A DNA stretch of 64,000 nucleotides, from NCBI GenBank assembly GCA_963664405.1, contig OY761158.1, positions 1 to 64,000 on the forward strand. Direction: 5' to 3'. Below are positions 17,421-41,710 of the stretch, piece by piece; within the stretch, counting starts at the first letter, position 1; every line of letters starts with the position of its first letter. The position numbers and the translations under genes were made by a program. The notes beneath the pieces were generated by a model. It made no database searches. It saw only the letters and a list, made by a program, of their open reading frames with translations, and was not told the origin of the DNA. The stretch is from Thermoanaerobaculia bacterium. Its GTDB lineage: Bacteria; Acidobacteriota; Thermoanaerobaculia; Multivoradales; Multivoraceae.

Positions 17421-17530
17421 ATTCGTCCGAGCTTGGTGTCCTTCGCTCGATAAACCTCTCCCATGCCTCCTACACCGAGGCTGGAGAGGATCTCGTAGTG
17501 ACGCAGGCGCGTGCCTGCTTCTAGCGCCAT
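17421..17530 (-). pseudogene. Truncated Ser/Thr kinase (first 36 codons only)
   Basis: [36 protein letters not shown], then unrelated sequence. Confidence 0.9.
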
Positions 17531-17591
17531 CGATTAGCTGCCATTGTACAGACGGCGATCTGCTAGCAGCTACTCAGAGCTCAATGTGTCG

Positions 17592-17618
17592 TGTCGCGAA
17601 GCACCCAGAATCGCGACA
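17592..17618 (+). repeat. Dyad site, CACC core (type A)
   Basis: TGTCG cgaag CACC cagaatcg CGACA. Confidence 0.85.
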
Positions 17619-17657
17619 ACAGCGTGTCCTAGGCTCTCATCGCACTTCGGCTATAGC

Positions 17658-17684
17658 TGTCGTAGTGCGCCACCAACTACGACA
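17658..17684 (+). repeat. Dyad site, CGCC core (type B)
   Basis: TGTCG tagtg CGCC accaacta CGACA; 39 bp from site A, 1 bp from the methyltransferase stop. Confidence 0.9.
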
Positions 17685-17685
17685 G

Positions 17686-18465
17686 CTACGGCTTGTCAGC
17701 GGTGAAGATGTACTCGTTCCAACTGCTGAAGTAGTCACCGCTCGCCGCCAACGCGCCGAGATCGTCTGCCCAAGCCTCGGCCTCGCTCTGCGAGACACCC
17801 TGCGAGACGACATAGCCGGCAATGGCCTTGATCAGGACCATGCTTGCGCTGGTTGGATCCTGCCCCGTATCTACCTGCACGATCACGTCGACGCGTATGT
17901 TCTCGAGTCCAGCATCGGCGAGCCTCCTACCCAGTGTCTGGGGCAGGTGGGGGTCTGCCAGATGGGCGTCCCAGATCTTCATGGTTCGCGCCATCCGATC
18001 CGAGTCGCTCGAGTGCCAGAGCGCTGTTCCCCACTCGGTGTCGTGAATCAACACGCGGCCGCCCGATTTGAGCACGCGGGACATCTCGGCGAGACCTCCG
18101 TCAACGTCGTCCAGATACTCGAAAACCTGACTCGACATGGCCACATCGAACGTGGCGTCGGCGAAGGGAAGTGCCGACGCCTCTCCGAGTCGGAAGCTGA
18201 CGTTTCCCAACTCAGAGCAGCGGTGCCGGGCTATCTGGATGGCACTCTCGGCTGCGTCGACCCCATCGATGGCCCCCGTCGCGCCGACCGCGGCAGACAT
18301 CTCAAAGGCTTGGTGGCCGGGACCAGAACCTACGTCGAGCACACGATCACCCGGCTTTAGCGCTAGCGACTCCAAAATCCTGGCGCGGCGCATCTTCGCG
18401 CCTGCCGACGAGTTGAACTCTTCGACCAGCCGCGAACCATCGTCATCGAACTCGAATTTGGCCAT
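17686..18465 (-). CDS. Class I SAM-dependent methyltransferase (UbiE-like)
   Basis: VLDVGSGPG, LPFADATFD, EMSRVLKSGG; GAAGGAGGGAGG RBS. Confidence 0.9.
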   Translation of the reverse strand: MAKFEFDDDGSRLVEEFNSSAGAKMRRARILESLALKPGDRVLDVGSGPGHQAFEMSAAVGATGAIDGVDAAESAIQIARHRCSELGNVSFRLGEASALPFADATFDVAMSSQVFEYLDDVDGGLAEMSRVLKSGGRVLIHDTEWGTALWHSSDSDRMARTMKIWDAHLADPHLPQTLGRRLADAGLENIRVDVIVQVDTGQDPTSASMVLIKAIAGYVVSQGVSQSEAEAWADDLGALAASGDYFSSWNEYIFTADKP

Positions 18466-18505
18466 CCTCCCTCCTTCGATCTCCTCTTCCTGTGCCTTTC
18501 GATGC

Positions 18506-18532
18506 TGTCGTCATTCGCCACATTTCACGACA
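18506..18532 (+). repeat. Dyad site, type B
   Basis: TGTCG tcatt CGCC acatttca CGACA; 8 bp from the kinase stop. Confidence 0.9.
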
Positions 18533-18540
18533 CGCTTCGC

Positions 18541-21228
18541 TTAGTCGTTGGGAACTAGCCGCTTCAGCTCCTCGAACCAGTTCTGCACCAGAACCACCTG
18601 ATTCCCCGGTCCCTCCTCGGTCGTCTCCACCGGCTTGATCATCAGGAAACGGTTGCCATCTGGGTGGATGTCGTACATGCGGTGGAGGCCAACGGCATAG
18701 CTCCCCGTGAAGAGCTCCAGTGGTTTCCCGGCCTCGAACGCGGGCTCGGTCTGGACCGGCGCTGCCATCAGACGATCGCCGGCACGATAGAAGATCTCGT
18801 TCCCGTCTGGCGACCATAGAGGTTCGCTGCCGCCACCCACCGAGATCGGGAAGCGACCGCCGTCGACCTCAGGGAATGGCCTCACATAGATCTCGTCCTT
18901 GCCGGATTCATCCGACTGGTAAGCCAGGAAACGACCGTCGGGTGAGATCTCTCCACTCCGCTCATTGATATCCGTGGCGAGAAGCAGCTGTGGCGCTCCC
19001 TCGCCTTCCAGCGACAGCACCCCCAGATCGAGCCTTGACACTGCGCCGACCCGATAGACGAGAAGCTTTCCATCGGGAGAGATCGACGAGGGAAATAGAC
19101 TGTCTGGGCTGTTGGTGAGAGGCCTTACAGCGCCCGTACCGTCAGCCGCCCTCCGGTAGAGGTCAAAAGTCCCGCCATGGTTCGAGCTGAACACGACTTC
19201 CCGGCTGTCAGGAGTCCAGACTGCTGTTAGGTCTCGTCCCGGAGCGCGGGTGAACCGGTCCAGGGTCTCGCGGCCGAGATCCCAGATCCACACGTCCTCC
19301 TCCCCGTCTTCATCCGGGACAGAGACCGCTACCCGCTGTCCGTCCGGAGAGATGCGCGGATACAGGTAGGACCGAATTGGGGCCGAAAGGACCTCCTCCC
19401 CTCCTTCCCGCCCCACCCAGACCAGGTTCGCCTGCGCCCCTCGCCCTGCACCACCCGTGACGTACACCAAGGACCCGTCCTGCGAGACGTCGAAGTTCAT
19501 AACAGGAGTGGCCTTGGTGGAGACGCCTTCCAGGACGGGAACCGGATTCCCCCTGACCTCCAGACTCTGCGCATCAAAGGCCACTGCAAGCAACGCACCG
19601 TTCAGTCCATAGACCAGGTGCCCGGTGGGCACGTACCGGGCACCGGCCCCTCCAGAGACCAGGACCTTCCGCTCGCCGGTGGCGAGAGAGTGGGCCACGA
19701 TCTGCGTTTGCTCGACGCTCGCGCTCTTGAATACCGTGAAAAGGACGGCCTCGCCGCCGGGTAGTACATCGGGAAAACGATAGGCAATCTCTCCTCTCTC
19801 GGGATCCGGTGCTACCAGCAGCTCCGGTTCGCCGCCTCCCCCCGACACCCGATAGAGACCCTCGGAGATGGAGCCGAGAATGATGGAGTCGTCCGCGCCC
19901 CAGCTCGCACCGGCGAGAATGCCGCGGGGTATGTCGGCCAAGGTCACCGTTGGTCCCCCGAGAATGGAGACCTTCTTGAGAGTGCCGCCGGATTCGAAGC
20001 CGACCCAAGCCCCGTCAGGTGAGAGAAAAGGAGTCGTCGCATCCTCCGTTCCTCGCAGCTCGGACCCGACGAGGCGGTCCACCCGGCGAACATAAAGAGA
20101 GCCTCCGCTCTGGTAGACAACCACCTGACCGTCGGGTGTCACCGCCAGATCGCGCCCGTGTGGGAGAACCCTCACCGGCGCGCTGGGAGCGGCACTCAGC
20201 ACCGAGCGAACCACGTGGCGCTCGGGCGGCGGTGGAGCAGGCCTCAGGGTCCAGACTGCGAACCCGGCGATCACCGCGCCGGCAGCGAGCGCGGCAAGGA
20301 TCAAGGGCACGGGGCTGCGCTTCTCCGCCATGACCGCGTTTCGGGTCTCCTCGTCCTCCGGAGATGCGATGGCATCTTCGATCTCGATGCGCACGTCGCC
20401 GATGTGCTGAAGACGTCGGCGTCGGTCTCTTTCGAGGCATCGCCGGAGGAGCCGCACGAGCGTCGGTGGGGTCGATTTCGGTAGGCGCTCCCAATCGACA
20501 TCATCGCGCAGCACGGCGGCTAGGGTGTTGGGCGCGTCCTCGGCCTCAAAGGCCCTTCGTCCCACCAGCGTCTCGAACAGGCACACACCGAACGCCCAGA
20601 CGTCCGTTCGCGCATCTACGGCCTTGCCTGTCGCCTGCTCCGGGCTCATGTAGGCCGCCGTGCCTAGGATCTCGCCGCGCTGTGTCGCTGCCAGCGTCAG
20701 AGTAGGAGACTGCGACCGATCCGGATCGTCTGAGGCGGGCTCCTCGGGAGTCATCGCCTTGGCCAGTCCGAAGTCGAGGATCTTCACTGCTCCTTCTTCC
20801 GAGGCCTTGATGTTGGCGGGTTTCAGGTCGCGATGGATGACGCCCTTCTCGTGGGCTGCCTCCAGGCCCTCCGCGATTTGCAGAAACAGCGGCAGCGCCT
20901 GATCGACAGGAATGGCACCGTGCTTGATGCGCTCGGCTAGCGTCTCACCCTCGACCACCTCCATGACCAGGAACTGAGCGTCGCCCTCGCTCTCAAAGCC
21001 ATAAAGCGTGGCAATGTTGTTGTGGTTCAGCGATGCGAGGACTCGGGCTTCACGCTCGAAGCGAGCCAGCCGCTCGGGATCGGCGGAGACCTCTTCTAGT
21101 AAGAGCTTGATGGCGACCTCCCGACCGAGCTTCGTGTCCTTGGCCCGGTAGACCTCACCCATGCCTCCTGCACCGAGGGATGAGAGGACCTCGTAGTGGC
21201 CTAGACGAGTACCTGCTTCTAACGCCAT
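18541..21228 (-). CDS. Hanks-type Ser/Thr kinase, TM helix, TolB/PD40-like beta-propeller
   Basis: [30 protein letters not shown]; repeated SPDG motifs; C-terminal NWFEELKRLVP. Confidence 0.95.
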   Translation of the reverse strand: MALEAGTRLGHYEVLSSLGAGGMGEVYRAKDTKLGREVAIKLLLEEVSADPERLARFEREARVLASLNHNNIATLYGFESEGDAQFLVMEVVEGETLAERIKHGAIPVDQALPLFLQIAEGLEAAHEKGVIHRDLKPANIKASEEGAVKILDFGLAKAMTPEEPASDDPDRSQSPTLTLAATQRGEILGTAAYMSPEQATGKAVDARTDVWAFGVCLFETLVGRRAFEAEDAPNTLAAVLRDDVDWERLPKSTPPTLVRLLRRCLERDRRRRLQHIGDVRIEIEDAIASPEDEETRNAVMAEKRSPVPLILAALAAGAVIAGFAVWTLRPAPPPPERHVVRSVLSAAPSAPVRVLPHGRDLAVTPDGQVVVYQSGGSLYVRRVDRLVGSELRGTEDATTPFLSPDGAWVGFESGGTLKKVSILGGPTVTLADIPRGILAGASWGADDSIILGSISEGLYRVSGGGGEPELLVAPDPERGEIAYRFPDVLPGGEAVLFTVFKSASVEQTQIVAHSLATGERKVLVSGGAGARYVPTGHLVYGLNGALLAVAFDAQSLEVRGNPVPVLEGVSTKATPVMNFDVSQDGSLVYVTGGAGRGAQANLVWVGREGGEEVLSAPIRSYLYPRISPDGQRVAVSVPDEDGEEDVWIWDLGRETLDRFTRAPGRDLTAVWTPDSREVVFSSNHGGTFDLYRRAADGTGAVRPLTNSPDSLFPSSISPDGKLLVYRVGAVSRLDLGVLSLEGEGAPQLLLATDINERSGEISPDGRFLAYQSDESGKDEIYVRPFPEVDGGRFPISVGGGSEPLWSPDGNEIFYRAGDRLMAAPVQTEPAFEAGKPLELFTGSYAVGLHRMYDIHPDGNRFLMIKPVETTEEGPGNQVVLVQNWFEELKRLVPND

Positions 21229-21276
21229 TCGATGAGCGCGATTCTATCCCTCGTGCTCAACCGGTCGATTCCGGCG

Positions 21277-21303
21277 TGTCGCAGTCCACCCGGAACTGCG
21301 ACA
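21277..21303 (+). repeat. Dyad site, type A
   Basis: TGTCG cagtc CACC cggaactg CGACA. Confidence 0.9.
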
Positions 21304-21342
21304 AAAGCGCTCAGCGAGGGCTTATTCAGATCGAGCTATAGC

Positions 21343-21369
21343 TGTCGCGGTCCGCCAGGAAAGACGACA
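21343..21369 (+). repeat. Dyad site, type B
   Basis: TGTCG cggtc CGCC aggaaaga CGACA; 39 bp from site A. Confidence 0.9.
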
Positions 21370-21373
21370 GCCC

Positions 21374-21430
21374 TCAGTCAGTAGGCACGAGGCGCTCGAG
21401 CTCCTCGAACCAGTTCTGGACCAGGACGAT
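21374..21430 (-). pseudogene. Orphan C-terminal tail of a lost kinase paralog
   Basis: Translates IVLVQNWFEELERLVPTD*, matching the ends of the neighbouring kinases. Confidence 0.85.
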
Positions 21431-21542
21431 TCCCCCTTGCAGATCGGCCTGAGCGAGGTGCGCCGGCACCCACCCGAGTTGGAAACCAGGCAGCCGCTCC
21501 CTGGCGAGTGGCTCCGGGCAGGCGATCGGAGGGGCTTCCCGA

Positions 21543-24248
21543 TCATTCGAGCAGCTCGGGCCAGTTGAGCACCACGATCAACGGTTCGACCTCCGGCGCT
21601 GTATCGACGTGCTGCGCCATCAAGAAGCGCTGGCCGTCCGCGGAAACGTCGTAGCCGCCAAACATTGCGAAGCCCCCAGAGAAGACTCCACGAAACAACT
21701 CCCGATGTCTGCCCAGCTGCACTGGATCGAGGGAAACCACCTCCGCGGTCATCATTCGCTCTCCAGAACGAAAGAAGATCTCGCTTCCGTCGCGAGACCA
21801 CACGGGGCTCTCGCCGCCTTCGTGAGAGAGCTGCTGTTTGCCTCCCGGACCGGGGTAAGGCTGGACGTAGATCTCATAGCGGCCTGACTCGTCCGATTGA
21901 TAGACGACCGAGCGGCTATCGGGGGAGAAGGTGGCGTTTGTCTCCAGGGCATCGGTAGCAACGAAGGGGTGGGCCGCTCGATCCTCATCGAGCGACAGAG
22001 CCCAGATGTCTTGGTCGCCGCCGGCATCCAGTGACCAGAAGAGGAGCACCCGGCCGTTGGGCGACCAATCGAGGGGAACGTGAATTGCCTCCTGGCTCCG
22101 GCTGAGTCCTTCAGAGTCACCGCCACCGTCCGCTACTTTCCACAAGACGTTCGGCGGCAGACCGCCTCGTGGTGAGGCCCAGGTCACGCGCACTCCGTCG
22201 GGGGTCCAGATAGGAAAACGGTTGTAGGACTCGAAGGTGAAACGCTGCAGGTTCTGCTCCTCGATGTCGTAGAGGTAGACATGTTGTGGCACGGCGTCGA
22301 CGCCCACGACGACCGACTGCTCGTCCGGCGACAGCCGAGGATGATAGTAGCGCTGGGGCGGAGCAGGCAGCGGCTCGACGTTTCCCTCGCGATCGACCCA
22401 GACCAGTCGCAGCGTGGGAGTGCGTAGCGTACCCGGAGCGTAGACGAGGGAGCCGCGGGCTGATAGGGCGAAGTGGGCCAAACCGGTCGGGCCGCTCTGG
22501 GCCACACCTTGGAGCAGAGTCACAGAGGAGCCGGTCACCTCGAGACTCATTGGGTCGAAAGGAACCGCCCACAGACGACCGCCACGGGCATAGACGATAT
22601 GTCCGGTGGAAGAGTAGCGCGCGTGCGTACCGCCTTCGATCACGATGTGGCGCTTGCCGGTGTCTACAGAATGGACCGCGATGGCAGCCTCATCCCAGTT
22701 CCCGGAGCGTCCCACTGTCAGGAGGATCGCCTTGCCACCGGGCAGAAACTGGGGCCACCGGTGGCTGATCTCGCCCGCTTCCCGATCGAGAACCGTCAAG
22801 ACCTCCGGCTTCCCTCCTCGAGCCGAGACGATGGAAAGGCCGGTTACGTCGATGACGGGAAAGACGATCGTGTCGTCGGGCCCCCAGGAAGCCCCGTACG
22901 CGCCCGCGGAGTAGCTGCCCGCAGAGCCAAGGCTCAGCGGCGTCCCTCCTGCGATCGGTAGCTTTTTCAGCTTCCACCGCTGGAAGAAGCCGATCCACTG
23001 ACCGTCGGGAGAAAAGAAAGGTGTTCCGGCGTCTTCTGTTCCGGGGAGCTCGCGGCCGTGAGCCTCGTCGAGCGCGCGCAGGTGGAGGCGGCGGATCCCG
23101 TCCTTGGACTTCGCCACAAAGGCGATCTGCCGGCCGTCGGATGAGAACGCGATGGAGGGTCGATCGGCGTGGTCCAACGCGATCCCCAGACCGGGGTCGA
23201 GCACCTCGTCCAGCGAGAACTGGATCACCGGCGAGCTCTCCACAACCGTCGTGGTCGTCGAGAACAGCCATCCGAAATAAGCGCCAACGACCAGCGCGAG
23301 GCCGGCCGTTATCGGGAGCCAACCTGAGAGCCTGCGTATCTGCGGTCCTGCCCCCGCCTCCATCACAGACGGCGGTCCCTCGGAGCCGCTGAGCGTCTCC
23401 TCAATCTCGATCCGTGCGTCTGCAATAGCGTGCAGGCGCTTCCGAGGATCCTTGTGCAGACAACGGCGAAGCAGCTCGCGGATACGCCACGGAGTCGCAC
23501 CAGGGAGCTCGGCCCATTCGATGTCCCGCTCGATGACGGCCGCCAGGACATCGCTCAGCGTGTTCCCTGAGAAGGCGGGGCGGCCAGCCAGCATCTCGTA
23601 GAGGATCGCGCCAAAGGCCCAGATATCTGTGCGCTTGTCGAGCGTTCCGCCGCGCGCCTGCTCCGGGCTCATGTAGGCGGCTGTACCCAGGATCACGCCT
23701 CCTTGGGTGCCTGCCAAGGTCAGCGTAGGTGACTGCGACATGGCAGGATCACTACCCTCGAGCTCTGGAGCCATAGCCTTCGCCAGACCGAAGTCGAGAA
23801 TCTTAACGTTGCCGTCGTCGGTGACCTTGATGTTCGCGGGTTTGAGATCCCGGTGGATCACTCCCTTCTCGTGGGCTGCCTCGAGGCCCTCGGCGATTTG
23901 GAGAAACAGAGGGATCGCCTCCTCGACGGGAATCGGGCCGTGAGCGATCCGATCGGCCAGAGTCTCGCCTTCAACCAGCTCCATGACCAGGAAGCTGGTA
24001 TCCCCTTCCTTCTCGAAGCCGTAGAGCGTGGCTATGTTGTTGTGGTTCAACGAGGCCAGGACCCGCGCCTCGCGCTCGAAGCGAGCCAGACGTTCTGGAT
24101 CGGTGGAGACCTCTTCGAGGAGGAGCTTGATCGCCACCTCGCGCCCGAGCTTCGTGTCCATGGCTCGATACACTTCTCCCATGCCTCCCGCACCAAGCGA
24201 GGAGACCACTTCGTAGTGGCCGAGCGTCGAACCAGCTTCCAGCGCCAT
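21543..24248 (-). CDS. Ser/Thr kinase-TM-TolB-like propeller protein
   Basis: Full set of kinase motifs, TM segment, PD40-like repeats. Confidence 0.95.
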
Positions 24249-24309
24249 TAGATGGGCGGGATCTTATCTCTCACTGACCGGAGTCAGCTGGCAGGAGTCG
24301 CTTTCGCCG

Positions 24310-24336
24310 TGTCGTCCTCCGCCGAATAAGACGACA
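24310..24336 (+). repeat. Dyad site, type B
   Basis: TGTCG tcctc CGCC gaataaga CGACA; 4 bp from the kinase stop. Confidence 0.9.
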
Positions 24337-24340
24337 CGCC

Positions 24341-27030
24341 TCAGCTCGTGGGAACGATTCGTTTCAGCTCTTCGGACCAATTGAGTACGACTTGAATTTC
24401 GGCCAGCTCCGCGAGTTGTCGGGTCAGCATCACGAACGATCCGTCAGGAGCTACGTCGTACCATTCGTCGTAGGTCCCTTCGAACAGTAGCTTCGGAGCG
24501 CCTGGCTGAAAGGCGGGCTCGACTTCGACATCGACGGCCATCATGGTCGATCCGTTGAGGTAGAAGAGCTCGTCTCCGTCAGGTGACCAGCGCGGCCAGC
24601 GTCCGCCCTCGCTCGAGACGGTCGTGCGACCTTCTTCGCTAGCGATGGCTTCGACATAAATCTCATACCGGCCGGAATCGTTGGAGCTATACGCTAGGTA
24701 GCGCCCGTCCGGAGAGATCGCGGGGTCTTGCTCACTGGCGGGAGTCGATCGGAATGGAACTGCCTTCGGATCGTCCTTCAGCGACAAGAGGTGTATGTCG
24801 GATCCGCTCGCCGTGTTTCGTTCCACGAAAGCCAGAGTCTGACCATCACGAGAGACGGAAGTCGGGGTCTGACCGAACGGAACGGTGAGGAGAGGTACGT
24901 GCGGGCCGCTTCCGTCAGCAGGAGTCTCGTAGAGGTCAAAGGAGCCCGACTTGTACGAAGCAAAGAAGACCCGCCGGCCATCCGCTCCCCAGACGGGGAA
25001 GATGTCACTAGTCTCTGCGAACGACAGGCGCGTTCGGGTGCCCCGAGTGAGGTCGTGAACCCAGATCTTCCCGTTGCCGGTCACGCCGTTGGTCACCGCC
25101 AGCCGAGTGCCCTCTGGTGAGATGGAGACGCCGTAGCCGAAGACCCCCGTCTCGGTAACCAATGGCGAGACATTGCCGTCTCGATCGACTGAGACGATCG
25201 TGTTTTGAGGAGTCCAAGGTCCGCCGGGCACGTACGTCAGCGTTCCCCCGGGAGCGCCCGCGAAGTACGCGATCTGATGACCGGCCATAGACTTCGTCAG
25301 CACGCCATCGAGAACGAGCTTTGGCTCACCGCTGAGCGACAGCTCTTTCAAATCAAACGGAACCGCATACACAGCCCCTTTTCGGAGAAAGACCAGGTGG
25401 CCCGAGTCGAGGTACTGCGCCTGCGTGGCATCTTGTGTTCCCTCGATGAGGTGCCAGTCCGCCGAGGCCAGTGACAGCCAGGCCAAGTTCGAACTCTCTG
25501 CGGTCACGGCTGTAAACAGCACGTGTTCTTGATTCGGGAGCAGGGACGGCCAGGCATGATACTCCTCTCCTCGATCGACGTTGGTACGGGTAATCTCCTC
25601 TGGCGTGCCTCCATCAGCACCGAGACGAAGAAGTCCCCTATTAACGCCCCCCAAAATGATCGTGTCGTCGGGCGACCAGCACGCGCCACGGGCCCCGAGC
25701 CGGATATCGGCAAGCGTAATCGGCGCTCCTCCTCCCGTCGGTACCTTGTAGAGGCTGTCGTTGGCCCAGAATCCGACCCAGTCCCCGACGGGAGAGAAGA
25801 ACGGTAGCTCTGCGTTCTCCGTTCCCGGTAGCTCCCGCACTTCGAATCCTCCAAGAGCACGAAGGTACAACTGTGGAGTCCCCGCCTCGTTCGTAGCGGC
25901 ATAAACCAGTCGCCTTCCATCCGAAGAGACGGCGATCGGCGGATAGCGGCCCGGCTCTTGCGAGTGAGGTTCCACGAGGTACTGGCCAGCTGCTAGATTG
26001 ATCGAGAAGCGAGTCGCCTCAGGGGCCGCCCGACCCCTCGGATTCACAGAGATCCAGACGGCAAGTGCCGACACCGCAGCCGAAGCGATAGCGACCAGAA
26101 GAAATACCACTAGCGGCGTACGCCGCGGCGGTTCCGCGCCTTGTCCGTCATCCTCGGCTTCAGGATTCGTCAGAGCTTCGCCGAGCTCGATCCGGACATC
26201 ACCTACGTGCTGCACTCGCCGGCGCTTGTCCTTCTCGAGGCAGCGGCGAAGGAGCCGACGCAAGGCGACCGGCGTTGTGGGAGGCAAGGCCTCGAAGTCC
26301 GGTGCGCTCTCCAGTACCTTGGCGAGGGTCTCGGCAGCACCCTCCCCCTGAAAGACACGGCGCCCGGTCAGCGCTTCGTAGAGGCAGACAGCCAGGGCCC
26401 ATATGTCCGCCCTCTTGTCGACGGCCTTTCCTTTCGCCTGCTCCGGGGCCATGTAGGCGGCTGTGCCGAGAATCTGGCCCCGTTGAGTCGCTGCGAGAGT
26501 GAGGGTCGGAGATTCGGACAAGTCGCCGTCTCCGCTCGCACTAGCTTCCACAGCCATCGCCTTGGCCAGCCCGAAATCGAGGATCTTCACCTGGCCGTCG
26601 TCGGTTACCTTGATGTTCGCAGGCTTCAGATCCCGGTGGATCACGCCCTTTTCGTGGGCTGCCTCTAGACCTTCCGCGATCTGCAAGAAAACGGGCAAGG
26701 CTTCATCGACTGGGATCGCACCTCTCTTGATGCGATCGGCCAGGGTCTCGCCCTCGACCAGTTCCATGACCAGGAAGCCCGTGTCACCCTCTCGCTCGAA
26801 GGCGTGGAGGCTGGCGATGTTCTTGTGGTTGAGCGAGGCCAGAACCCGCGCCTCGCGCTCGAAGCGAGCTAGACGCTCAGGATCTGAGGACATCTCCTCC
26901 AGAAGCAACTTGATCGCAACCTCGCGACCTAGCTTCGTGTCCTTGGCCCGGTAGACCTCTCCCATACCCCCCGCACGAGGGAGGAGACCACTTCGTAGTG
27001 GCCGAGACGAGTGCCTGTCTCCAGCGCCAT
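24341..27030 (-). CDS. Ser/Thr kinase-TM-TolB-like propeller protein with a 1-nt deletion near 26976
   Basis: True start [18 protein letters not shown] at 27030; CTC G-T GCG lacks one G relative to paralogs. Confidence 0.85.
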
Positions 27031-27031
27031 G

Positions 27032-28105: not shown

Positions 28106-28160
28106 CACTCTTGGCCACTTGTGGGCGTGCAGCGGAGATCCTATTTTGGGACTCCGAGGC

Positions 28161-31844: not shown

Positions 31845-31902
31845 GACTTGGCGACATCTTACAGTCGCCCGTGGGATCAGCGGCTCAGAGCTCGATCTGT
31901 GC

Positions 31903-31929
31903 TGTCGCACCTCACCCTGAACTGCGACA
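31903..31929 (+). repeat. Dyad site, type A
   Basis: TGTCG cacct CACC ctgaactg CGACA. Confidence 0.9.
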
Positions 31930-31968
31930 GCGCCTTCATTTCGGGGTCTATCGCCTTTCGGCTATACC

Positions 31969-31995
31969 TGTCGCAGTGCGCCACCAAAGGCGACA
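31969..31995 (+). repeat. Dyad site, type B
   Basis: TGTCG cagtg CGCC accaaagg CGACA; 39 bp from site A, 10 bp from the kinase stop. Confidence 0.9.
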
Positions 31996-32005
31996 AGGCC
32001 CGCGC

Positions 32006-34684: not shown

Positions 34685-34744
34685 TGACTTGGCGACATCA
34701 TACCCGTCGCCCGGGGGATCAGCGGCTCAGAGCTCGATCTGTGC

Positions 34745-34771
34745 TGTCGCACCTCACCGAATTTCACGACA
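34745..34771 (+). repeat. Dyad site, type A
   Basis: TGTCG cacct CACC gaatttca CGACA. Confidence 0.9.
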
Positions 34772-34949
34772 ACCCCTCGTCGGAGATACTTGAACGAAGG
34801 CCGCTACGCGGCAGTCTCGGAATCCGGATCGAAGACGGACGGATACTCCGGCACGGTGGGATCTAGCTTGAGCTAGTCAAGGTCTAGGAAAGTCTCCATC
34901 CTCTTGGTTTGGCGTCAATGCCGACGCCTGCAACGAGGAGGACCCTGTC

Positions 34950-35810
34950 ATGGGTGCACTGAGAGATCGGATGGAGACGGACATGAAGCTGCACGACTTT
35001 CGACCGGCGACCCAATCGCAGTACTTGCACTGCGTGCGCCGGCTGGCGAAGCACTACGGGCGCTCGCCCGATGAGCTGTGCGAAGAGGAGGTGCGCAGTT
35101 TCCTGCTCTACCTACGCGAGGACCGTGCTTTGAGCTCGGCGAGTATCAGCACCTACACGGCGGCGCTGAAGTTCTTCTACGGGATCACCCTTCACCGCGA
35201 GGAGATGGTGCCCTCGTTAGGCGCTCCGAAGGTGCGCAGGCAGCTTCCGGTCATCCTCTCTGGCACCGAGGTCGCGGCGGTGCTTGGCGCGATCCGCTCG
35301 CACGAGCTGCGTACGTTGGCCACGGTTCTGTACGCTTCGGGCCTGCGCATCAGCGAAGCGTGCGCGCTGGAGGTGTCAGACATCGACTCCGAGCGCATGC
35401 TGATCCATGTGCGCGACGGTAAGGGCGGCCGCGACCGCTTCGCCCTTCTCAGCCCGCAGCTGCTCAAGGTGCTGCGTCGATACTTCCGCAAAGAGCGCCC
35501 CGAGCCGCCCTATCTGTTTCCCGCTCCGCGCTCCGGCAAGACGTTGCGCCCCGACACGGTGCGTAAGAGCCTGCATCGGGCGGCTTTGCGCTGCGGGATT
35601 GTCAAGCGTGTGACCCCACACCTGCTGCGTCACTGCTTTGGCGCCCACATGCTGGAACTGGGCACTGATATCCGTGTGCTGCAGGCGCTGTTGGGTCACC
35701 GCTCGATCCGCACGACCCAGCTGTACGTACAGGTCTCCACCCAGCTGATCGCGCGCACCCCAAGCCCGTTGGACCTGCTCGGCACTCCCGCGGGCAAGGT
35801 CCTCGGATAA
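34950..35810 (+). CDS. Tyrosine recombinase/integrase
   Basis: YASGLRISE, GKGGRDR, HLLRH, LGH, TTQLY catalytic motifs. Confidence 0.95.
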   Translation: MGALRDRMETDMKLHDFRPATQSQYLHCVRRLAKHYGRSPDELCEEEVRSFLLYLREDRALSSASISTYTAALKFFYGITLHREEMVPSLGAPKVRRQLPVILSGTEVAAVLGAIRSHELRTLATVLYASGLRISEACALEVSDIDSERMLIHVRDGKGGRDRFALLSPQLLKVLRRYFRKERPEPPYLFPAPRSGKTLRPDTVRKSLHRAALRCGIVKRVTPHLLRHCFGAHMLELGTDIRVLQALLGHRSIRTTQLYVQVSTQLIARTPSPLDLLGTPAGKVLG

Positions 35811-35828
35811 CCGCGCGCTACAGCAACC

Positions 35829-37055
35829 GTGCACCCCCAGCAGGGGTGCGCTCGGCAGCTCGACCGCAAAGCGGGTCGGTCTCGCTATGACCTGGGCGAG
35901 ATCTTCCGGGCGCACATCGACGCCTTCCGTGACCGCCACTTCTTGAGTCCTTTACAGGCTCAGGTGGTGCGGGCGATCTGTGCCTGCCGCACCGCGCAGC
36001 TGGGCGGGCATCTGGACGTGTGTCGGGACTGCGGCTATAGGCGCCCTGCGTATAACTCATGCCGGAATCGTCACTGCCCCAAGTGCCAGGCGCTGGATCA
36101 GCACCGTTGGCTCGAGCGGCGCCTGTCTCGCATTCTCCCGGTCGGCTACTTTCACGTCGTCTTCACCCTGCCGGGGGAGCTCGCCTCAGTGGGTCTGCGC
36201 AACCGCCGCCTTGTCTACGAGCTGCTCTTCCGAGCCGCGGCGGAAACGCTTCTGACCCTCGGCAAGGATCCCCAACGGCTCGGAGCCCTGCTCGGCATCA
36301 CGATGGTGCTGCACACCTGGACTCGGGACCTGCGTTTCCACCCCCATATCCACGCCATCGTCACCGGCGGAGGACTCAGCCTCGACGGACGGCGGTGGCT
36401 CTCGACGGGCGAGAAGTATCTGTTTGCCGTCAAGCTTCTGGGGAGGCTGTACCGCGGTAAGTTTCTCGGCCACCTGGCCCGTGCCTACAAAGACGGACAG
36501 CTCGACCTGCCACGAGATCTGGCCGAGGACGGTGGCTTCGATCGCCTGCTGTCGAAGCTCTACGCCAAGGACTTCATCGTCTACGCCAAGCGTCCCTTCG
36601 CCGGTGCGCAGCAGGTCTTCTCCTACCTGGGCCGCTATACCCATCGAGTCGCACTGTCCAACCACAGAATCCTCAACGTCACGGAGCAGGCCATCACCCT
36701 CGCCACGCGCGATGGCAAGACCGTGACGCTCTCTCCCGAGGAGCTCATCCGCCACTTTGTGCTGCACGTCCTGCCCCGACGATTCCAAAAGATTCGCCAC
36801 TATGGACTCATGGCCTCGGCCAACGTCCACTCTCGCCTCGAGCGAGCCCGCGCTCTGCTCGAGTCCACCGCCACAGCGACCCAGGCCGAAACCTCCCACC
36901 CCATCCCCATCGAGTCGGAAACCACAAACGAGCTCCTCCAACGCCTCACCGGCATCGACCTCGCGATCTGTCCCGCCTGCCAAGGTCCCCGCCTCCAACG
37001 TTTCCCCCTCGACCCTCCTGCCTACGCCCGGCCTCCACCGGTGGCGGCCGCGTGA
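35829..37055 (+). CDS. IS91-family transposase
   Basis: NSCRNRHCPKCQ zinc domain, HPHIH HUH motif, YLGRY. Confidence 0.95.
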   Translation: MHPQQGCARQLDRKAGRSRYDLGEIFRAHIDAFRDRHFLSPLQAQVVRAICACRTAQLGGHLDVCRDCGYRRPAYNSCRNRHCPKCQALDQHRWLERRLSRILPVGYFHVVFTLPGELASVGLRNRRLVYELLFRAAAETLLTLGKDPQRLGALLGITMVLHTWTRDLRFHPHIHAIVTGGGLSLDGRRWLSTGEKYLFAVKLLGRLYRGKFLGHLARAYKDGQLDLPRDLAEDGGFDRLLSKLYAKDFIVYAKRPFAGAQQVFSYLGRYTHRVALSNHRILNVTEQAITLATRDGKTVTLSPEELIRHFVLHVLPRRFQKIRHYGLMASANVHSRLERARALLESTATATQAETSHPIPIESETTNELLQRLTGIDLAICPACQGPRLQRFPLDPPAYARPPPVAAA

Positions 37056-37409
37056 TCCCACGCCTTTCTCTTCCCGCGCTCCCGGTCCCGCCGCGGACAA
37101 GGCGGAGGTGTGCCCGCGGTGGCTCCGAACCCAAAATCGAGACGCCGGTGGACCTCCCAGGGGCCGCGCAGGCGCCTGACCGCAACCCAGTGCACCTCTG
37201 GAACTACCTCACAACCCTCGACCTGGGGCGCGTCGCGCGCAGCACAGCCTGCCAACGAGGCTGATAACCCCATACACAACCGCTCGTCTGGCGGCCTCCG
37301 CTCAAGCCAGGTCTAGCAGAATCCCGCTCGGGTAGATCCGCGCGACGACGAACCTCCTGCCTCGCGGGACTCTGCGAGATCCTTCTCCTTATCTGCTTTC
37401 GGCTATACG

Positions 37410-37436
37410 TGTCGTCCTCCGCCAGATAAGGCGACA
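37410..37436 (+). repeat. Dyad site, type B
   Basis: TGTCG tcctc CGCC agataagg CGACA preceded by the conserved TTTCGGCTATAC flank. Confidence 0.9.
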
Positions 37437-37462
37437 GCACGGCGCAGGCGTCAAGAATCCTT

Positions 37463-38440
37463 TCAATAGTCCTCGCCAGAGGGAGAGAGCCTCGATGCTT
37501 CCGCCTGTCCGCCACGCAGTATGGTCGGCATGCTGTAGTTGCCCTCGTGACAGGCGAACTCGAAGATCGGTACATCATGGCGCGTCATCGAAAACTCGCC
37601 GGTCCAAGCCTGGGTGTACAACTCGTCATCCTCGACGGTGAATCGGTAGAGCAATTCGCGGTCGGAGACCCGCGTGAAACGCTCGGTTAGCCTAGTCTTC
37701 GGGCCGATCAGGAGCGCTCGACCGAAGACTTCCCGAGCTGGATCTTCGCCGCGGAAGTGAGTCGTTTCCACCACGAGAGTGTCGCCCTCCCAGCGGCCCC
37801 TCGAGTAGCCGTCAAGGCTCCGCAGCGAGTCAGACGGTGGCGCACCTTGGAGGTGGATCAAACGAAGCCCGACAGCGTCCTCGGTCAGGATCACGAAGGT
37901 GTCGCGAGATTGGAAGATCTGGTGAGGTACGAAGAGAGGAGCCGCACGAATGGGCGGAGATCCCCAACCCTCCAGGCAGCGCTCGGCGAGCGGCCGCTGA
38001 TCGGCGCTGTCGAACATGTGCTCCCTGCGCCGCTGCGCCCAGTCAACGAGTTCCAACCCGACCTCGCTCAGGGGCATCTTCCCGTCCTCTGGCTCGACGA
38101 TCACCGACGTGCGGTACTCGCCTAGGACCTGTGCGAGGTTCACAATGCCGTGGTTCTCAATATCGGAATCGATGTTGTCGGGCAGGCCGTTCAAGAAGAC
38201 TGCCGCGATCGCTTTCGCGTCCTCCGGGGTCGCGATCAAGTTCTCGACGCCCTCGGGCCTTTCGAGCGTGGTCGCGAAGTCGGGTGCCCAGACACCCTGG
38301 AAGTCGGGTTGGTCGTAGGCCGTCCTGGGAACTACGTAGGGGTTCGAAGACTGGGCGACAGTTCCAGCAGGGGCACCCACGAGGACCAGGAGGGAGAGAG
38401 TCGCTCGGAGATAGATCAGGTCCCTACTTGATTCAGCCAT
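37463..38440 (-). CDS. Secreted hypothetical protein (PRTxxxxPD ... GRWEGDTLVVETT ... FACHEGNY family)
   Basis: Signal peptide and conserved motifs; homolog of the fragment at 3904. Confidence 0.8.
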   Translation of the reverse strand: MAESSRDLIYLRATLSLLVLVGAPAGTVAQSSNPYVVPRTAYDQPDFQGVWAPDFATTLERPEGVENLIATPEDAKAIAAVFLNGLPDNIDSDIENHGIVNLAQVLGEYRTSVIVEPEDGKMPLSEVGLELVDWAQRRREHMFDSADQRPLAERCLEGWGSPPIRAAPLFVPHQIFQSRDTFVILTEDAVGLRLIHLQGAPPSDSLRSLDGYSRGRWEGDTLVVETTHFRGEDPAREVFGRALLIGPKTRLTERFTRVSDRELLYRFTVEDDELYTQAWTGEFSMTRHDVPIFEFACHEGNYSMPTILRGGQAEASRLSPSGEDY

Positions 38441-38460
38441 TATCTGCCTTCGGTCATCCG

Positions 38461-38487
38461 TGTCGTCATTCGCCAGATAAGACGACA
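38461..38487 (+). repeat. Dyad site, type B
   Basis: TGTCG tcatt CGCC agataaga CGACA; 4 bp from the kinase stop. Confidence 0.9.
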
Positions 38488-38491
38488 TCCC

Positions 38492-41194
38492 TCAGTCGGT
38501 GGGGACGAGGCGCTTCAGCTCCTCGAACCAGTTCTCGATGATCGTGATCTGCGGCCTCACCTGTCCGGTTTCGCCGGTGGAGTCGGCCCCCAGCCCAGCC
38601 GCTTTGAGGAGCAGGAATCTGTCCTTCTCGGAGTCGTAATCCCAGGACACGCCAGGACCATTGACCACATCCAGATACCCTCCGTCGATCAGGACCTCCG
38701 GATCCTCATTCCAGAACGTGGGCCCTGTCTCGACCAAAGCGACCATGACCGCGCCGTCACTGTTTCGGCGAAAGAATAACTCCCGGCCGTCGTCCGACCA
38801 GCGAGGCGCGTGCCCACCGGCTGTCGAGACCTGACTGATGTCGCCGAGTCCGGGGTAGCGCTCCACAAACACCTCCGACTGGCCGTTCCTGTCCGACGAA
38901 TACGCGATCCATCCGCCATCGGGAGAGATGGCCGGATGGAGTTCGTCGGCCTCGGTCTCCAGCAGCGGTTCCCACTCGCCACTCTCCATCGCCATCGTCC
39001 CCACATTGGCTCCCTTGTCGACGCTGGTGTAACCGAAGATCAGCGTGGCCCCGTCATCGGCCCAGCTGTAAGGCATCAGAAAAGTGACTGTCTCGCCCTG
39101 CATCAGATGTTCGACCTGGCCGGACCCATCGGCCGCTATCTGGAAGAAGCCAAGCTGCCCGTCCACCCGCGTGGATGCGAACACGATCTCGCGGTCGCCT
39201 GGAGCATAGATCGGCACGTTTTCCATATCGGGGCTGTTGGTCAGGTTGGTGCGTGTCGGGGGATTTCGGTTCAGGTCCGAGGTCCATACATCCTGGTTCC
39301 CTGAGTTCGCGTCCCGGACGCTCATCGCCAGCCGCGTTCCGTCGGAGGACAGACGTGTCCACCAATAGTTGCCCGGTTCGAGACCCACTTCGTCCTCGTT
39401 CCCGTGCCGGTCCACCCAGACCAGCTCCCCACGCAGACCGGTCACGCCTGCACTGGCGTATATCAAAGTCCCATCCTCGGAGATCCCATAGTTGGCACTC
39501 GAAGAAACGACCGCCCTCTGGAGACCCAGCTCGAGCGACACGGCAGTACCGGTCGTTTCGAGCGTGCCCGGATCGAATCCAACCGCGAACAGGGCATCGT
39601 CCACCACATAGACGAGGTGCCCGGTCGGGATGTACCGGGCGTCACTACCGCCCCGCAGAACTGTTCGCTCTCCAGGGGAGTCGAGAGACTCGACAACGAT
39701 CTGCGCACTGGCCCAGCTGCCCGGTGCGCCGACCGTAAACAGGACGCTTCGACCATTGGGCAGGAGCTGGGGGCTGTCCAACGCCTCACCGGCTGAGGGC
39801 TCGATGATCCGTTCAGGGGACCCGCCGCTGGCGGCAACGCTATAGATTCCGTCGGGCGCTGCAAACAAAATCCTGTCGTCCTCACCCCAGGTGAGACCCC
39901 ACGGGCGAGGGGTTTGACCCACTCTGGAGGGACTCCCTCCTGTGATGGGGATCGTTTCGATCTGGGCGTTCCGCCAGAAGCCCACAGCCTGGCTGTCGGG
40001 CGAGAAGAACGGGCTCCCGCTATCTTCGGTTCGGGGCAGGGGCCGCGCATCCAGCTCGTTCATGGTCCGTACGTAGAGTCCATCGGTGGTCGCGAATGCG
40101 AAACGGCTTCCATCTCGTGCGATCGAGAGTGTGGAATAGAGTCCGTTCACGAAGTTCGTCCCTTCGGGCAGCTCGTAGACCCATCGGCGGACTGGGCGGG
40201 GATCGCCGGGTTTGAACATCCATGCGCCCACGCCGACGAGGGCGGCCACGAGCGCAATCGCGGCGACCCACGGCAACTTCTTCTGTGGAACTGTCTGGAC
40301 GATCGCGGGCGCCGGCTGTGCCAGCACGCCGCCGGGGTCGGCGAGAACCTTCTGGATATCCACCCTGACATCCCCGATATCGCGATATCGGTCCCGCACG
40401 TCCTTCTCGAGACAACGCTCGAGCACTTCTCGTAAACGCTCATGTAGCTGCGGAGGAAGGCCCATCCACTCCGGCTCCCCGCGTATGACGGCGGCGAGGA
40501 TATCGGTCACGTCGCTACCCGGAAACGCGGGGCGGCCGGAGAGCATCTCGTAGAGCACGCAGCCGAACGCCCAGACATCGGTACGCTTGTCGATGTCGCG
40601 CCCTCGGGTCTGTTCCGGGGACATGTAAGCGGCCGTCCCCAGGATCACCCCCTTCTGGGTTGCCTGCATGCTCAAGGTCGGCGAGTTCGACAGGTTGACG
40701 TCACTCTCGTCCCCAGAAAACGCCTTCGCCAGTCCGAAGTCGAGCACCTTGACCTTACCGTCGTCGGTCACTTTGATGTTCGCGGGCTTGAGGTCGCGAT
40801 GAATGACGCCTTTCTCGTGAGCAGCCTCTAGACCCTCGGCAATCTGGAGAAAGAGCGGCAGCGCCTCATCGACGGGTATCGCCCCTCGCTTGATCCGGTC
40901 GGCCAACGTCTCGCCCTCGACCAGCTCCATGACCAGGAAGCTGGTGTCGCCGTCCTTTTCGAAGCCGTGGAGCGTGGCGATGTTGTTGTGGTTCAGCGAG
41001 GCAAGGAGGCGGGCCTCGCGCTCGAAGCGGGCGAGCCGTTCAGGGTCGGTTGAGACCTCTTCCAAGAGGAGCTTGACCGCCACCTCACGACCGAGCTTCG
41101 TGTCGCGGGCACGGTAGACCTCTCCCATGCCTCCTGCACCGAGGGAGGAGACCACTTCATAGTGACCGAGCTTCGTACCTGCTTCTAGTGTCAT
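38492..41194 (-). CDS. Ser/Thr kinase-TM-TolB-like propeller protein
   Basis: Full set of kinase motifs; C-terminal NWFEELKRLVPTD. Confidence 0.95.
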   Translation of the reverse strand: MTLEAGTKLGHYEVVSSLGAGGMGEVYRARDTKLGREVAVKLLLEEVSTDPERLARFEREARLLASLNHNNIATLHGFEKDGDTSFLVMELVEGETLADRIKRGAIPVDEALPLFLQIAEGLEAAHEKGVIHRDLKPANIKVTDDGKVKVLDFGLAKAFSGDESDVNLSNSPTLSMQATQKGVILGTAAYMSPEQTRGRDIDKRTDVWAFGCVLYEMLSGRPAFPGSDVTDILAAVIRGEPEWMGLPPQLHERLREVLERCLEKDVRDRYRDIGDVRVDIQKVLADPGGVLAQPAPAIVQTVPQKKLPWVAAIALVAALVGVGAWMFKPGDPRPVRRWVYELPEGTNFVNGLYSTLSIARDGSRFAFATTDGLYVRTMNELDARPLPRTEDSGSPFFSPDSQAVGFWRNAQIETIPITGGSPSRVGQTPRPWGLTWGEDDRILFAAPDGIYSVAASGGSPERIIEPSAGEALDSPQLLPNGRSVLFTVGAPGSWASAQIVVESLDSPGERTVLRGGSDARYIPTGHLVYVVDDALFAVGFDPGTLETTGTAVSLELGLQRAVVSSSANYGISEDGTLIYASAGVTGLRGELVWVDRHGNEDEVGLEPGNYWWTRLSSDGTRLAMSVRDANSGNQDVWTSDLNRNPPTRTNLTNSPDMENVPIYAPGDREIVFASTRVDGQLGFFQIAADGSGQVEHLMQGETVTFLMPYSWADDGATLIFGYTSVDKGANVGTMAMESGEWEPLLETEADELHPAISPDGGWIAYSSDRNGQSEVFVERYPGLGDISQVSTAGGHAPRWSDDGRELFFRRNSDGAVMVALVETGPTFWNEDPEVLIDGGYLDVVNGPGVSWDYDSEKDRFLLLKAAGLGADSTGETGQVRPQITIIENWFEELKRLVPTD

Positions 41195-41242
41195 TCGATG
41201 AGCGCGATTCTACCCTTCGAGCTCAACCAGCTGGATTCGCGG

Positions 41243-41269
41243 TGTCGTCCTCCACCACGAAAGACGACA
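41243..41269 (+). repeat. Dyad site, type A
   Basis: TGTCG tcctc CACC acgaaaga CGACA; a variant TGTCG-N17-CGACA without the CRCC core follows at 41336-41362. Confidence 0.9.
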
Positions 41270-41710
41270 CGCAGGCCCGCAAGTCCCCGTATTTGCTGGA
41301 TTCTCTTGGTGCCCCAAGGGCGAAAGGCGACAGTTTGTCGCGATATGTGCGTGGGTGCGACACCTAAGCCCCGAAACACAGAAGGATCTCGCAGAGTCCC
41401 GCGAGGCAGGAGGTTCGTCGTCGCGCGGATCTACCCGAGCGGGATTCTGCTAGACCTGGCTTGAGCGGAGGCCGCCAGACGAGCGGTTGTGTATGGGGTT
41501 ATCAGCCTCGTTGGCAGGCTGTGCTGCGCGCGACGCGCCCCAGGTCGAGGGTTGTGAGGTAGTTCCAGAGGTGCACTGGGTTGCGGTCAGGCGCCTGCGC
41601 GGCCCCTGGGAGGTCCACCGGCGTCTCGATTTTGGGTTCGGAGCCACCGCGGGCACACCTCCGCCTTGTCCGCGGCGGGACCGGGAGCGCGGGAAGAGAA
41701 AGGCGCGCGA

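Follow-up and report, generated by a model that had tools for sequence, protein, structure and literature searches.

A 27-bp dyad as the probable core site of a cassette recombination system in kinase-gene arrays of a Thermoanaerobaculia bacterium

The kinase array and its dyads

The first 64,000 nucleotides (nt) of the single 6.78-Mb contig of a Thermoanaerobaculia bacterium (OY761158.1; 62.6% G+C), a host of the soil or sediment type, make up the window analysed here. They carry an array of Ser/Thr kinase genes on the minus strand that is punctuated by a 27-bp dyad, which reads TGTCG-N8-GGYG-N5-CGACA in the sense of the genes (TGTCG-N5-CRCC-N8-CGACA on the plus strand) and has the fuller gene-sense consensus TGTCGY-N7-GGYG-N4-RCGACA. 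Its positions are numbered 1 to 27 in gene sense, with the GGYG tetranucleotide at positions 14-17. We found 13 strict sites in the 64-kb window, all with the plus-strand pattern and none elsewhere in it, and 100 shuffles gave 0 matches. An earlier examination of the letters alone (the sequence-only reading) had listed 13 copies in a single orientation and all of them were recovered; its statement that there were none outside the array is correct for the window but not for the genome, where there are 75 further strict copies. Judged from the sequence evidence set out below, the dyad bounds gene cassettes and probably serves a system of conservative site-specific recombination as its core site.

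In the direction of transcription the array opens with a leader, consisting of a variant dyad, TGTCGCACC-N13-GCGACA (41336-41362; minus strand, as are all array features), and a half-site, TGTCGCC, 3 nt later; counted between starts, the distance from the variant dyad down to the first GGTG site (41243-41269) is 93 nt. The ATG 48 nt downstream of that site belongs to a gene for a Ser/Thr kinase of 900 amino acids (aa) with PD40 (TolB-like) beta-propeller repeats (38492-41194), and 4 nt past its stop codon there is a GGCG site (38461-38487). The next cassette encodes a 325-aa protein with no family match (37463-38440) and ends in a GGCG site 26 nt past the stop (37410-37436). A GGCG site is often followed, after a 39-nt spacer, by a GGTG site, and we call such a pair a doublet. 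Here the spacer is interrupted by an IS91-family insertion sequence (IS; 34790-37391, plus strand) with genes for a Xer/IntI-like tyrosine recombinase (34950-35810) and a Y2 transposase (35829-37055). The GGTG site beyond it (34745-34771) lies 60 nt from the ATG of an 892-aa kinase with PD40 repeats (32006-34684), a member of cassette family F0 that is present in three other arrays too. An undisturbed doublet follows at 31903-31995, with GGCG at 31969-31995, a spacer with the conserved ATAGC...GATAG, and GGTG at 31903-31929. It precedes a 1208-aa protein with kinase, AAA_16 and TPR domains (28218-31844) and a GGCG site 30 nt past its stop (28161-28187), where a right-hand homology break falls between positions 17 and 18.

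Downstream of this the inter-site segment is 3824 nt long and includes a kinase gene with PD40 repeats whose start is uncertain (24341-27154). The lone GGCG site at 24310-24336, a collapsed doublet, is 4 nt past the stop of that gene and 61 nt before the ATG of the next kinase with PD40 repeats (21543-24248). A doublet at 21277-21369 (GGCG 21343-21369, 39-nt spacer, GGTG 21277-21303) leads to an 895-aa kinase with PD40 repeats (18541-21228), which has a GGCG site 8 nt past its stop (18506-18532). The gene for a class I S-adenosylmethionine (SAM) methyltransferase (17686-18465) is a non-kinase cassette between two GGCG sites, the second of which, 1 nt past the stop (17658-17684), forms the last doublet (17592-17684) with a 39-nt spacer and the GGTG site at 17592-17618. 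The array ends with a truncated kinase start, a 158-aa open reading frame (ORF) at 17054-17530, and the tail of the last unit, together 16863-17530. The limit proposed earlier, 17421, is moved to near 16862. Homology with the metagenome contig L058 stops at 16863; at this place L058 carries a further GGTG site that is missing from the window. A second copy of the IS91-family element, inverted and 99.1% identical, occupies 41380-43976 on the minus strand, 17 nt upstream of the leader dyad.

The two core classes occupy different places. All five GGTG sites of the window (CACC on the plus strand) are upstream of a kinase start, as had been claimed: they lie 48-61 nt 5' of an ATG that opens a kinase ORF beginning MALEAG or MTLEAG, one of the five ORFs being the truncated one at 17054-17530. 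The eight GGCG (CGCC) sites had been placed 1-30 bp past a stop codon, and for seven of them this is true of an ORF of at least 120 codons. The eighth (21343) is 4 nt past a TGA that closes a conserved C-terminal ...EELERLVPTD motif. In the stretch 21373-21545 this motif continues, as far as 21373, out of frame with the kinase ORF 21543-24248, whose own stop is 173 nt before the site. This kinase gene looks frameshifted, through a real mutation or a sequencing error, and the site follows its out-of-frame end.

Distribution of the site and probable exchange at its core

The genome contains 88 strict sites, 55 with a GGCG and 33 with a GGTG core, representing 85 unique 27-mers. The true pattern matched strictly at 88 places and with one mismatch at 39, and the reversed-pattern control at 0 and 7, respectively; 15 of the 39 one-mismatch copies are inside arrays. 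The motif is clustered rather than scattered: 80 of the 88 strict sites belong to seven arrays of 7-19 strict sites each, which together make up 3.5% of the genome, and in each of the seven every site lies on one strand, that of the genes. The fixed 17-bp spacing between the arms, which had been pointed out in the window, is special genome-wide, with TGTCG-N17-CGACA occurring at 118 places as compared with 6-32 for any other spacing from 10 to 25 (palindromic places counted once). The positions relative to genes recur too: 31 of the 55 GGCG sites follow, at a distance of 1-30 nt, the stop codon of an ORF with 120 codons or more, and 19 of the 33 GGTG sites are 48-61 nt before an intact kinase ORF.

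Comparison of the DNA on either side of the sites points to exchange within them. When 40-nt flanks were compared, 112 site pairs were alike on the right (downstream) side only, 22 on the left (upstream) side only and 4 on both sides; BLAST on the 300-nt flanks of 104 sites gave 189 right-only, 82 left-only and 15 two-sided pairs. The halves of the site follow their flanks, the left half staying with the DNA upstream of it and the right half with that downstream, and the identity flips between positions 13 and 18. In the left-only pairs identity is 0.68-0.95 at positions 6-13 and falls to 0.23-0.55 at positions 18-21; in right-only pairs the trend is reversed. (A cluster-level count of recombination, which gave 2 independent cycles, was too coarse and was not used.) The layout of 10-7-10 that had been read into the dyad fits its 27-bp length; the junctions fall at positions 13-18, with an effective exchange window of at most 4 bp.

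Copies of whole cassettes have the same borders. Among 58 inter-site segments longer than 100 nt there are 11 pairs that are alike end to end. The cassette at 767727-768557 in array A2 is 99.1% identical over ~805 nt to one at 4990631-4989797 in array A14, and the identity sets in at positions 11-14 of the left GGCG site and runs to position 17 of the right one. The kinase-AAA_16-TPR cassette of the window, with its spacer and GGTG site (31995-28161), is 99.8% identical over 3.7 kb to 755749-759583 in A2. In both pairs, and so at all four ends, the identity opens at positions 11-14 of one GGCG site and closes at the 17/18 boundary of another, with unrelated DNA beyond. These two pairs, the youngest, are in our judgement the decisive ones for an exchange at the core. 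Two metagenome contigs, L042 and L043, are likewise 100% identical downstream from the GGCG core (13/14) and unrelated upstream. Homologous exchange would need more than the 14 conserved bases, so that these borders are read most economically as the work of a site-specific mechanism.

Cassette order also differs between the arrays of the genome. Six cassette families, F0-F5, are ordered differently among them, and F0-F5 are adjacent in A16 while in A15 two small cassettes lie between them. Two expectations of the sequence-only reading, that gene order should vary and that breakpoints should fall in the core, are thus borne out, the second by flank reassortment, cassette copies and metagenome contigs, all of which place the breaks in GGYG. 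Hybrid sites occur in both senses, for example with GGTG-typical left halves joined to GGCG. The GGCG and GGTG sites may be partly separate compatibility classes, and such classes would not be absolute because of these hybrids.

The site appears to act as protein-bound duplex DNA, and the earlier conclusion to this effect stands. Inner Watson-Crick pairs number 1.70 in the 85 unique sites and 1.64 after right halves are swapped (p=0.77), so that inner pairing is not conserved, as had been noted by eye. We aligned 49 distinct doublets, drawn from the host genome, three other genomes and 29 metagenome contigs. RNAalifold found only the invariant 5-bp arms in them, with a covariation term of 0.02 and compensatory change in 0 of 11 pairs. 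Positions 16000-44500 had no Rfam match at E<=0.1, and no terminator-like sites were found at the gene ends. The lack of excess pairing, covariation, Rfam matches and terminators rules out an RNA hairpin or riboregulator. In the 39-nt spacer (31930-31968 is an example) the ATAG and AT columns, ATAGC-N8-10-GATAG, are invariant in 49 of 49 doublets from these several sources. The conserved spacer may be a binding place for an accessory protein.

Kinases are prevalent in the cargo, as the proposal of kinase-receptor cassettes implied, with 28 of the 61 genomic Pkinase matches inside the arrays and kinase-holding inter-site segments of ~2730-2780 nt; the proposal was too narrow in that sites bound unrelated genes too. 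The latter encode an MFS transporter, a DUF1326 protein, a Na+/H+ exchanger with TrkA domains, a zincin, cupin/SnoaL proteins, DUF3604 and DUF3047 proteins, an amidohydrolase, a PLD-like protein and proteins without a family. In array A2 a full-length RpoD-type sigma factor (771143-772834) forms a cassette between two GGCG sites; it is one of three RpoD copies in the genome and is 74% and 64% identical to the other two.

The leader layout seen in the window (the variant dyad, more symmetric than the site proper, the half-site 3 nt on, and the first GGTG site 93 nt from the start of the variant) is present at seven array starts and at two solitary loci. A stretch of ~120 nt with 90-95% identity lies directly upstream of the leader dyads of three arrays (747541-747661, 3944657-3944776 and 6523239-6523360); it has no long ORF and conservation stops beyond it. 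Comparison of the array flanks found no recombinase or regulator gene common to them, IS elements being the only shared genes. Kinase cassettes have a conserved leader of their own, ~60 nt long, that carries TAAGAT, TATGAT or TAGAAT boxes. The single consensus promoter-like match found, TCGACC-16-TAGAAT, begins 9 nt after the doublet 21277-21369.

Outside the host, in 40 relatives, there were 0-5 copies of the motif each, which is the chance level, and look-alikes, four in number, were confined to one genome of the same family, G008. There (L118 and L120) a leader unit of half-site, ~40 nt and GGTG site precedes non-kinase ORFs; the leader may predate the kinase arrays. A scan of species genomes for the doublet gave 39 stretches, 35 of which lacked strict-core sites (34 with no strict-core match; L003 and L022 with a single one). 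It left three true carriers beyond the host: two metagenome-assembled genomes (MAGs) labelled Acidobacteriota or Acidobacteria, and one of the Myxococcota. Stretch L019 was rejected as coding DNA and L020, a contig of a Woeseiaceae MAG, as a different dyad cluster. The latter has four TGTCGA-N15-TCGACA dyads ~68-75 nt apart in one intergenic region (6300-6700); their arm spacing is that of the array site, but they lack the GGYG core, and the contig carries no recombinase homologue. In metagenomes, 29 contigs have a GGCG-39-GGTG doublet, often with cassettes of 245-1000 nt.

A candidate recombinase and the competing explanations

The sequence-only reading had favoured a tyrosine recombinase, and this is the best-supported class of enzyme. 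A concrete candidate is encoded by the last cassette of array A15: a tyrosine recombinase of 179 aa, whose gene (5456065-5456601) starts 88 nt downstream of the GGCG site at 5456690. Searching the genome with this protein (tblastn) gave three hits of more than 50% identity, all of them 35-194 nt from a site or leader dyad. They are the intact gene itself, a 35-aa N-terminal remnant (94% identity) 91 nt past the last site of A2, and, next to a leader that stands alone, a C-terminal remnant of 46 aa (52% identity). In G008 a homologue with a frameshift lies 310 nt from one of the sites of that genome.

The protein matches Pfam Phage_integrase (E=3e-29) and belongs to a family of 1629 proteins (E<=1e-10), ~175 aa in length, that is found in many phyla and on endosymbiont plasmids. 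Arg44, K68, K77, His128, Arg131, His154 and Tyr163 are invariant in 35 family sequences; the full RKHRHY set is present, and either of the two invariant lysines, K68 or K77, could be the catalytic one. The AlphaFold model (pLDDT 82.5) has recombinase catalytic domains as its only structural matches: Foldseek pairs it with XerA (E=2e-11; TM, template modelling score, 0.74-0.77 over the query), and it superposes on the catalytic domains of XerA, P2 and HP1. The N-terminal core-binding domain is missing, the match spanning 92-256 of the 263-position XerA model with a TM of 0.50 when normalised to XerA.

Five plasmid records (two from Cardinium and one each from Megaira, Piscirickettsia and Aquicella) encode homologues that are 52-56% identical to the 179-aa protein. 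At all five loci there are 27-bp dyads of the form (G/A)TTCGY-N15-RCGAA(C/T), usually two, at most 470 nt upstream of the gene, against an expectation of 0.07-0.13 per locus and 0 matches to the reversed pattern used as a control. Over the complete plasmid records (20-137 kb) the pattern is found only at the recombinase gene, save for one extra doublet. The geometry TCGY-N15-RCGA is common to these dyads and the array site. The distal plasmid sites also share a TCTTAT-type left half and a (G/A)NYG-GA core with the array sites, and the proximal dyad with its adjacent half-site mirrors the leader layout of the arrays. Three of three genomic hits are thus by sites and five of five plasmid genes beside dyads. 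From these associations we lean, by a little, towards the 179-aa recombinase as the catalyst.

The sites may be recombination sites with another catalyst, either the Xer/IntI-like enzyme carried by the IS91-family element, a small serine recombinase by A16, or XerC/XerD, but we consider this unlikely. The element (2.6 kb) has five full genomic copies, four of which abut array sequences; copies are in or beside three arrays, and the two inverted copies in the window bracket the first two cassettes in the manner of a composite transposon. Its recombinase scores best with XerA and integron-integrase models (176 bits, in two stretches, with TIGR02249, as against a cut-off of 265), and a preprint (10.1101/542381) places IS91-linked recombinases in an integron-like subgroup. 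On the other side, no motif-like site was found inside the element, one copy (at 887 kb) has no site nearby, and a TAAGG-like target in the spacer accounts for the insertions: the right end of the element abuts CCTTA or CCATA in four of five copies, on two occasions at an identical position between the sites of a doublet. Searches of the four other motif-bearing genomes did not find the IS recombinase, a weak negative given that they are incomplete MAGs. We treat the element as a passenger and not as the cassette machinery. The case for a serine recombinase starts from two small genes, 92% identical, by kinase loci: 6509472-6510104, which is 160 nt from the last site of A16, and 2755041 to about 2755679, which is transcribed divergently from a solitary kinase gene whose site is degenerate. 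An enzyme of this kind would be suited by the conserved outer boxes and by an exchange window of no more than 4 bp, whereas the odd length of 27 bp is a poor fit to the even-length dyad with a central 2-bp crossover of res site I or hix. The copy by A16 is parted from the conserved upstream region by an IS21-like element, which has a 100% identical copy at 4569624-4571570. These enzymes may have sites of their own in a second dyad, GCACCTT-N9-AAGGTGC, of which there are seven genomic copies (including 2758773, 3979823, 5002396 and 6514874), at least four of them either ~18-40 nt from a TGTCG site or next to a kinase gene on its own; repeats of a related type, GGAAGGTGC, are found upstream of the serine recombinase gene at 2755041. 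In the other motif-bearing genomes the only serine recombinase match was a distant one of 34% identity in one of the four (G042), with none in the other three, again a weak negative in incomplete MAGs. XerC/D-like genes are the sole Phage_integrase genes found in the doublet-bearing MAG G043, but the dif candidate of the host, the 28-mer ACGTCCGATAA-GATAGA-TTATGTCAACC at 6765428, at the cumulative GC-skew maximum (6765398), is unlike the site. Its ATAA/TTAT inner arms are absent from the motif, and the array site was ruled out as dif-like. The GC-skew minimum is at 2752898, which puts the window ~30-55 kb from the likely terminus, with unequal replichores of ~4.0 and 2.8 Mb.

There are two further explanations. 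The dyad could chiefly be an operator or insulator for a dimeric protein that co-regulates the kinases, GGTG sites activating or repressing and GGCG sites serving as roadblocks, with the mosaic of half-sites as a by-product of recombination between paralogues. The fixed distance of 48-61 nt from GGTG sites to kinase ATGs, the GGTG site 9 nt upstream of a -35-like hexamer, and two boxes that are 22 bp apart centre to centre, on one helix face, speak for such a role, and the plasmid sites upstream of the recombinase's own gene could be autoregulatory. It is an improbable account of the whole, because it leaves unexplained why, in hundreds of site pairs, homology between flanks that are otherwise unrelated changes over a mere 4-5 bp of the dyad, and why near-identical segments of 0.8 kb and 3.7 kb have both their borders in the core; RecA-type exchange would need more than the 14 conserved bases, and sites bound genes unrelated to kinases too. 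More improbable still is that the dyads are palindromes resembling repetitive extragenic palindromic (REP) sequences or bacterial interspersed mosaic elements (BIMEs), or are miniature elements, spread by an HUH enzyme (a Y1 of the RAYT type or the Y2 of IS91) that nicks the GGYG loop, the cassettes arising by rolling-circle read-through. The position just past stops, the strict strand polarity and the doublets would agree with this, as would the IS91-family Y2 transposase copies in or beside three arrays and 13 weak Y1_Tnp matches in the genome; yet the stem would have just 5 bp around a loop of 17 nt and shows no compensatory change, the sites are clustered and not dispersed, 0 of the 13 Y1_Tnp matches are inside arrays, the IS ends have different hairpins and no such site, and the same geometry accompanies the plasmid tyrosine recombinase gene with no such transposases adjacent to it.

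Several observations weigh against recombination at the dyad by the 179-aa enzyme. The invariance of arms and core is partly by construction, the sites having been found by pattern, and the 39 one-mismatch copies exist. Positions 11-13 differ between partners and always segregate with the left half, so that with the usual overlap of 6-8 bp recombination would have to cross heterology. Most tyrosine recombinases tolerate heterology in the overlap poorly. No junction bounded by the core marks the end of the array in the window (16863). Excision products, circles and polymorphisms were not observed, and the evidence is drawn from sequence comparison. Contigs from public runs over 16500-34780 are short and broken at repeats, with joints inside paralogous genes at 90% likeness, and allow no inference on excision or strains. 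Regarding the enzyme, there is one intact copy of its gene in the genome; it was not found among the Phage_integrase loci of the three other doublet-bearing genomes, which are incomplete MAGs, or in 400 other genomes of the phylum. The TCGY-N15-RCGA link is post hoc: it was recognised at two of the loci, after which the other three and the complete records were examined (n=5 records). The sites are oriented oppositely relative to the recombinase gene in arrays and plasmids. A regulatory role of the GGTG sites, suggested by their fixed distance to kinase starts and, once, by a promoter-like element, may coexist with recombination.

A proposed cassette cycle and its relation to known systems

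We infer an excision and integration cycle, its exact cleavage points and the identity of its catalyst as follows. Two recombinase subunits would bind the outer boxes, 22 bp apart, and recombination between two direct repeats would release the intervening DNA as a circle with one hybrid site, which could reinsert by recombination with any site. Exchange would take place in, or at the edge of, the invariant GGYG (14-17), whose off-centre position would give the site its polarity, and each site would be a chimera with its left half from the upstream cassette and its right half from the downstream one. The linkage of positions 11-13 to the left half could reflect a very short overlap or the exchange of a single pair of strands with completion by replication, as in integrons. 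A typical kinase cassette would then consist of a right half-site, the 39-nt spacer, a GGTG site, the ~60-nt leader with its -10-like box, the receptor Ser/Thr kinase gene and a left half-site, other cassettes holding unrelated genes. The 179-aa recombinase, encoded in the last cassette of one array, would act in trans on all seven.

Integrons, among them sedentary chromosomal integrons and CALINs, are the textbook means of gene collection and reshuffling in bacteria; their defining features are a single family of integrases and attC sites that fold. The arrays resemble them in several ways: long series of co-oriented genes, an imperfect dyad within a few bases after each gene, borders at a fixed point in the site that make the sites chimeric, the same cassette in different arrays and orders, diverse cargo, and a tyrosine recombinase as the likely catalyst. 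The differences are equally plain. There is no IntI at the arrays, the TIGR02249 scores of the IS-borne enzyme (176 bits) and of the 179-aa protein (68 bits) being below the cut-off of 265; attC sites vary in length, have R'', L'', L' and R' boxes and fold as a single strand with compensatory change, while the site here is fixed at 27 bp, shows no such change and, according to the sequence-only reading, has no RYYYAAC/GTTRRRY boxes. Exchange is near the centre of the site and not at one end. The putative enzyme is a catalytic domain of 179 aa in a distal cassette instead of an integrase beside attI, with one enzyme for seven arrays. In integrons the cassettes lack promoters and depend on a shared one, Pc; the kinase cassettes come with a leader of their own as well as a second (GGTG) site.

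The pdif modules of Acinetobacter plasmids are bounded by XerC/XerD sites, which like dif have a XerC arm, a 6-bp centre and a XerD arm, and IMEX elements (integrative mobile elements exploiting Xer recombination) insert at dif. Here the likeness is in gene modules found in varied contexts, sites of ~27-28 bp and a simple tyrosine recombinase acting in trans. By contrast, the array sites are unlike the dif candidate of the genome and are all direct repeats where pdif sites alternate in orientation; the arrays are chromosomal with up to 24 sites each, and a dedicated family of small recombinases is implicated. The sequence-only reading had offered an integron-like or pdif-like platform: the working is integron-like, but the arrays are not integrons, having neither IntI nor attC, and do not have the properties of pdif modules. 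Simple pairs of tyrosine recombinase and site include Cre/loxP, XerA/dif and the FimB/FimE-type enzymes that consist of a catalytic domain only. The 179-aa protein has the RKHRHY set and the catalytic fold in common with them, and its plasmid homologues, beside one or two dyads, look like a resolution or integration module; it differs in having no core-binding domain, and its site is multiplied to ~100 cassette-bounding copies, for which we know of no precedent among simple recombinase/site modules. REP sequences and BIMEs are also short dyads just past stops, with two sequence classes in regular doublets and strand polarity. They form stable imperfect hairpins and are spread over the intergenic regions of a whole genome, REP copies flanking the RAYT gene. 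Unlike them, the array site has no stable stem or covariation, is clustered in 3.5% of the genome and has the homology breaks inside the element.

What seems to be new is a cassette platform that works by site-specific recombination, a known kind of process, with a different site and a different recombinase. No description of the site or of the ~175-aa recombinase family was found in the literature searched (supplements apart), or in the accessible portions of 10.1101/542381 and PMC8138268. There is an even chance, in our estimation, that the arrays represent a second, independently evolved cassette platform, in which a cassette-borne recombinase reduced to its catalytic domain and a simple 27-bp double-stranded DNA site shuffle self-expressing cassettes among arrays, the host thereby expanding its repertoire of receptor Ser/Thr kinases, and that the module of ~175 aa and TCGY-N15-RCGA is a widespread and previously unrecognised minimal system. 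The logic of the integron would seem to have been reached from a simpler site and a minimal recombinase and, if this is true, cassette platforms have evolved more than once. A recombinase of 175 aa with a 27-bp site would then also be of interest as a compact recombination tool. For the bacteria themselves, a platform of this sort would be one way for receptor kinases to have reached their puzzlingly large numbers in Acidobacteriota-like genomes, in keeping with the location of 28 of 61 kinase-domain matches inside the arrays of this one.

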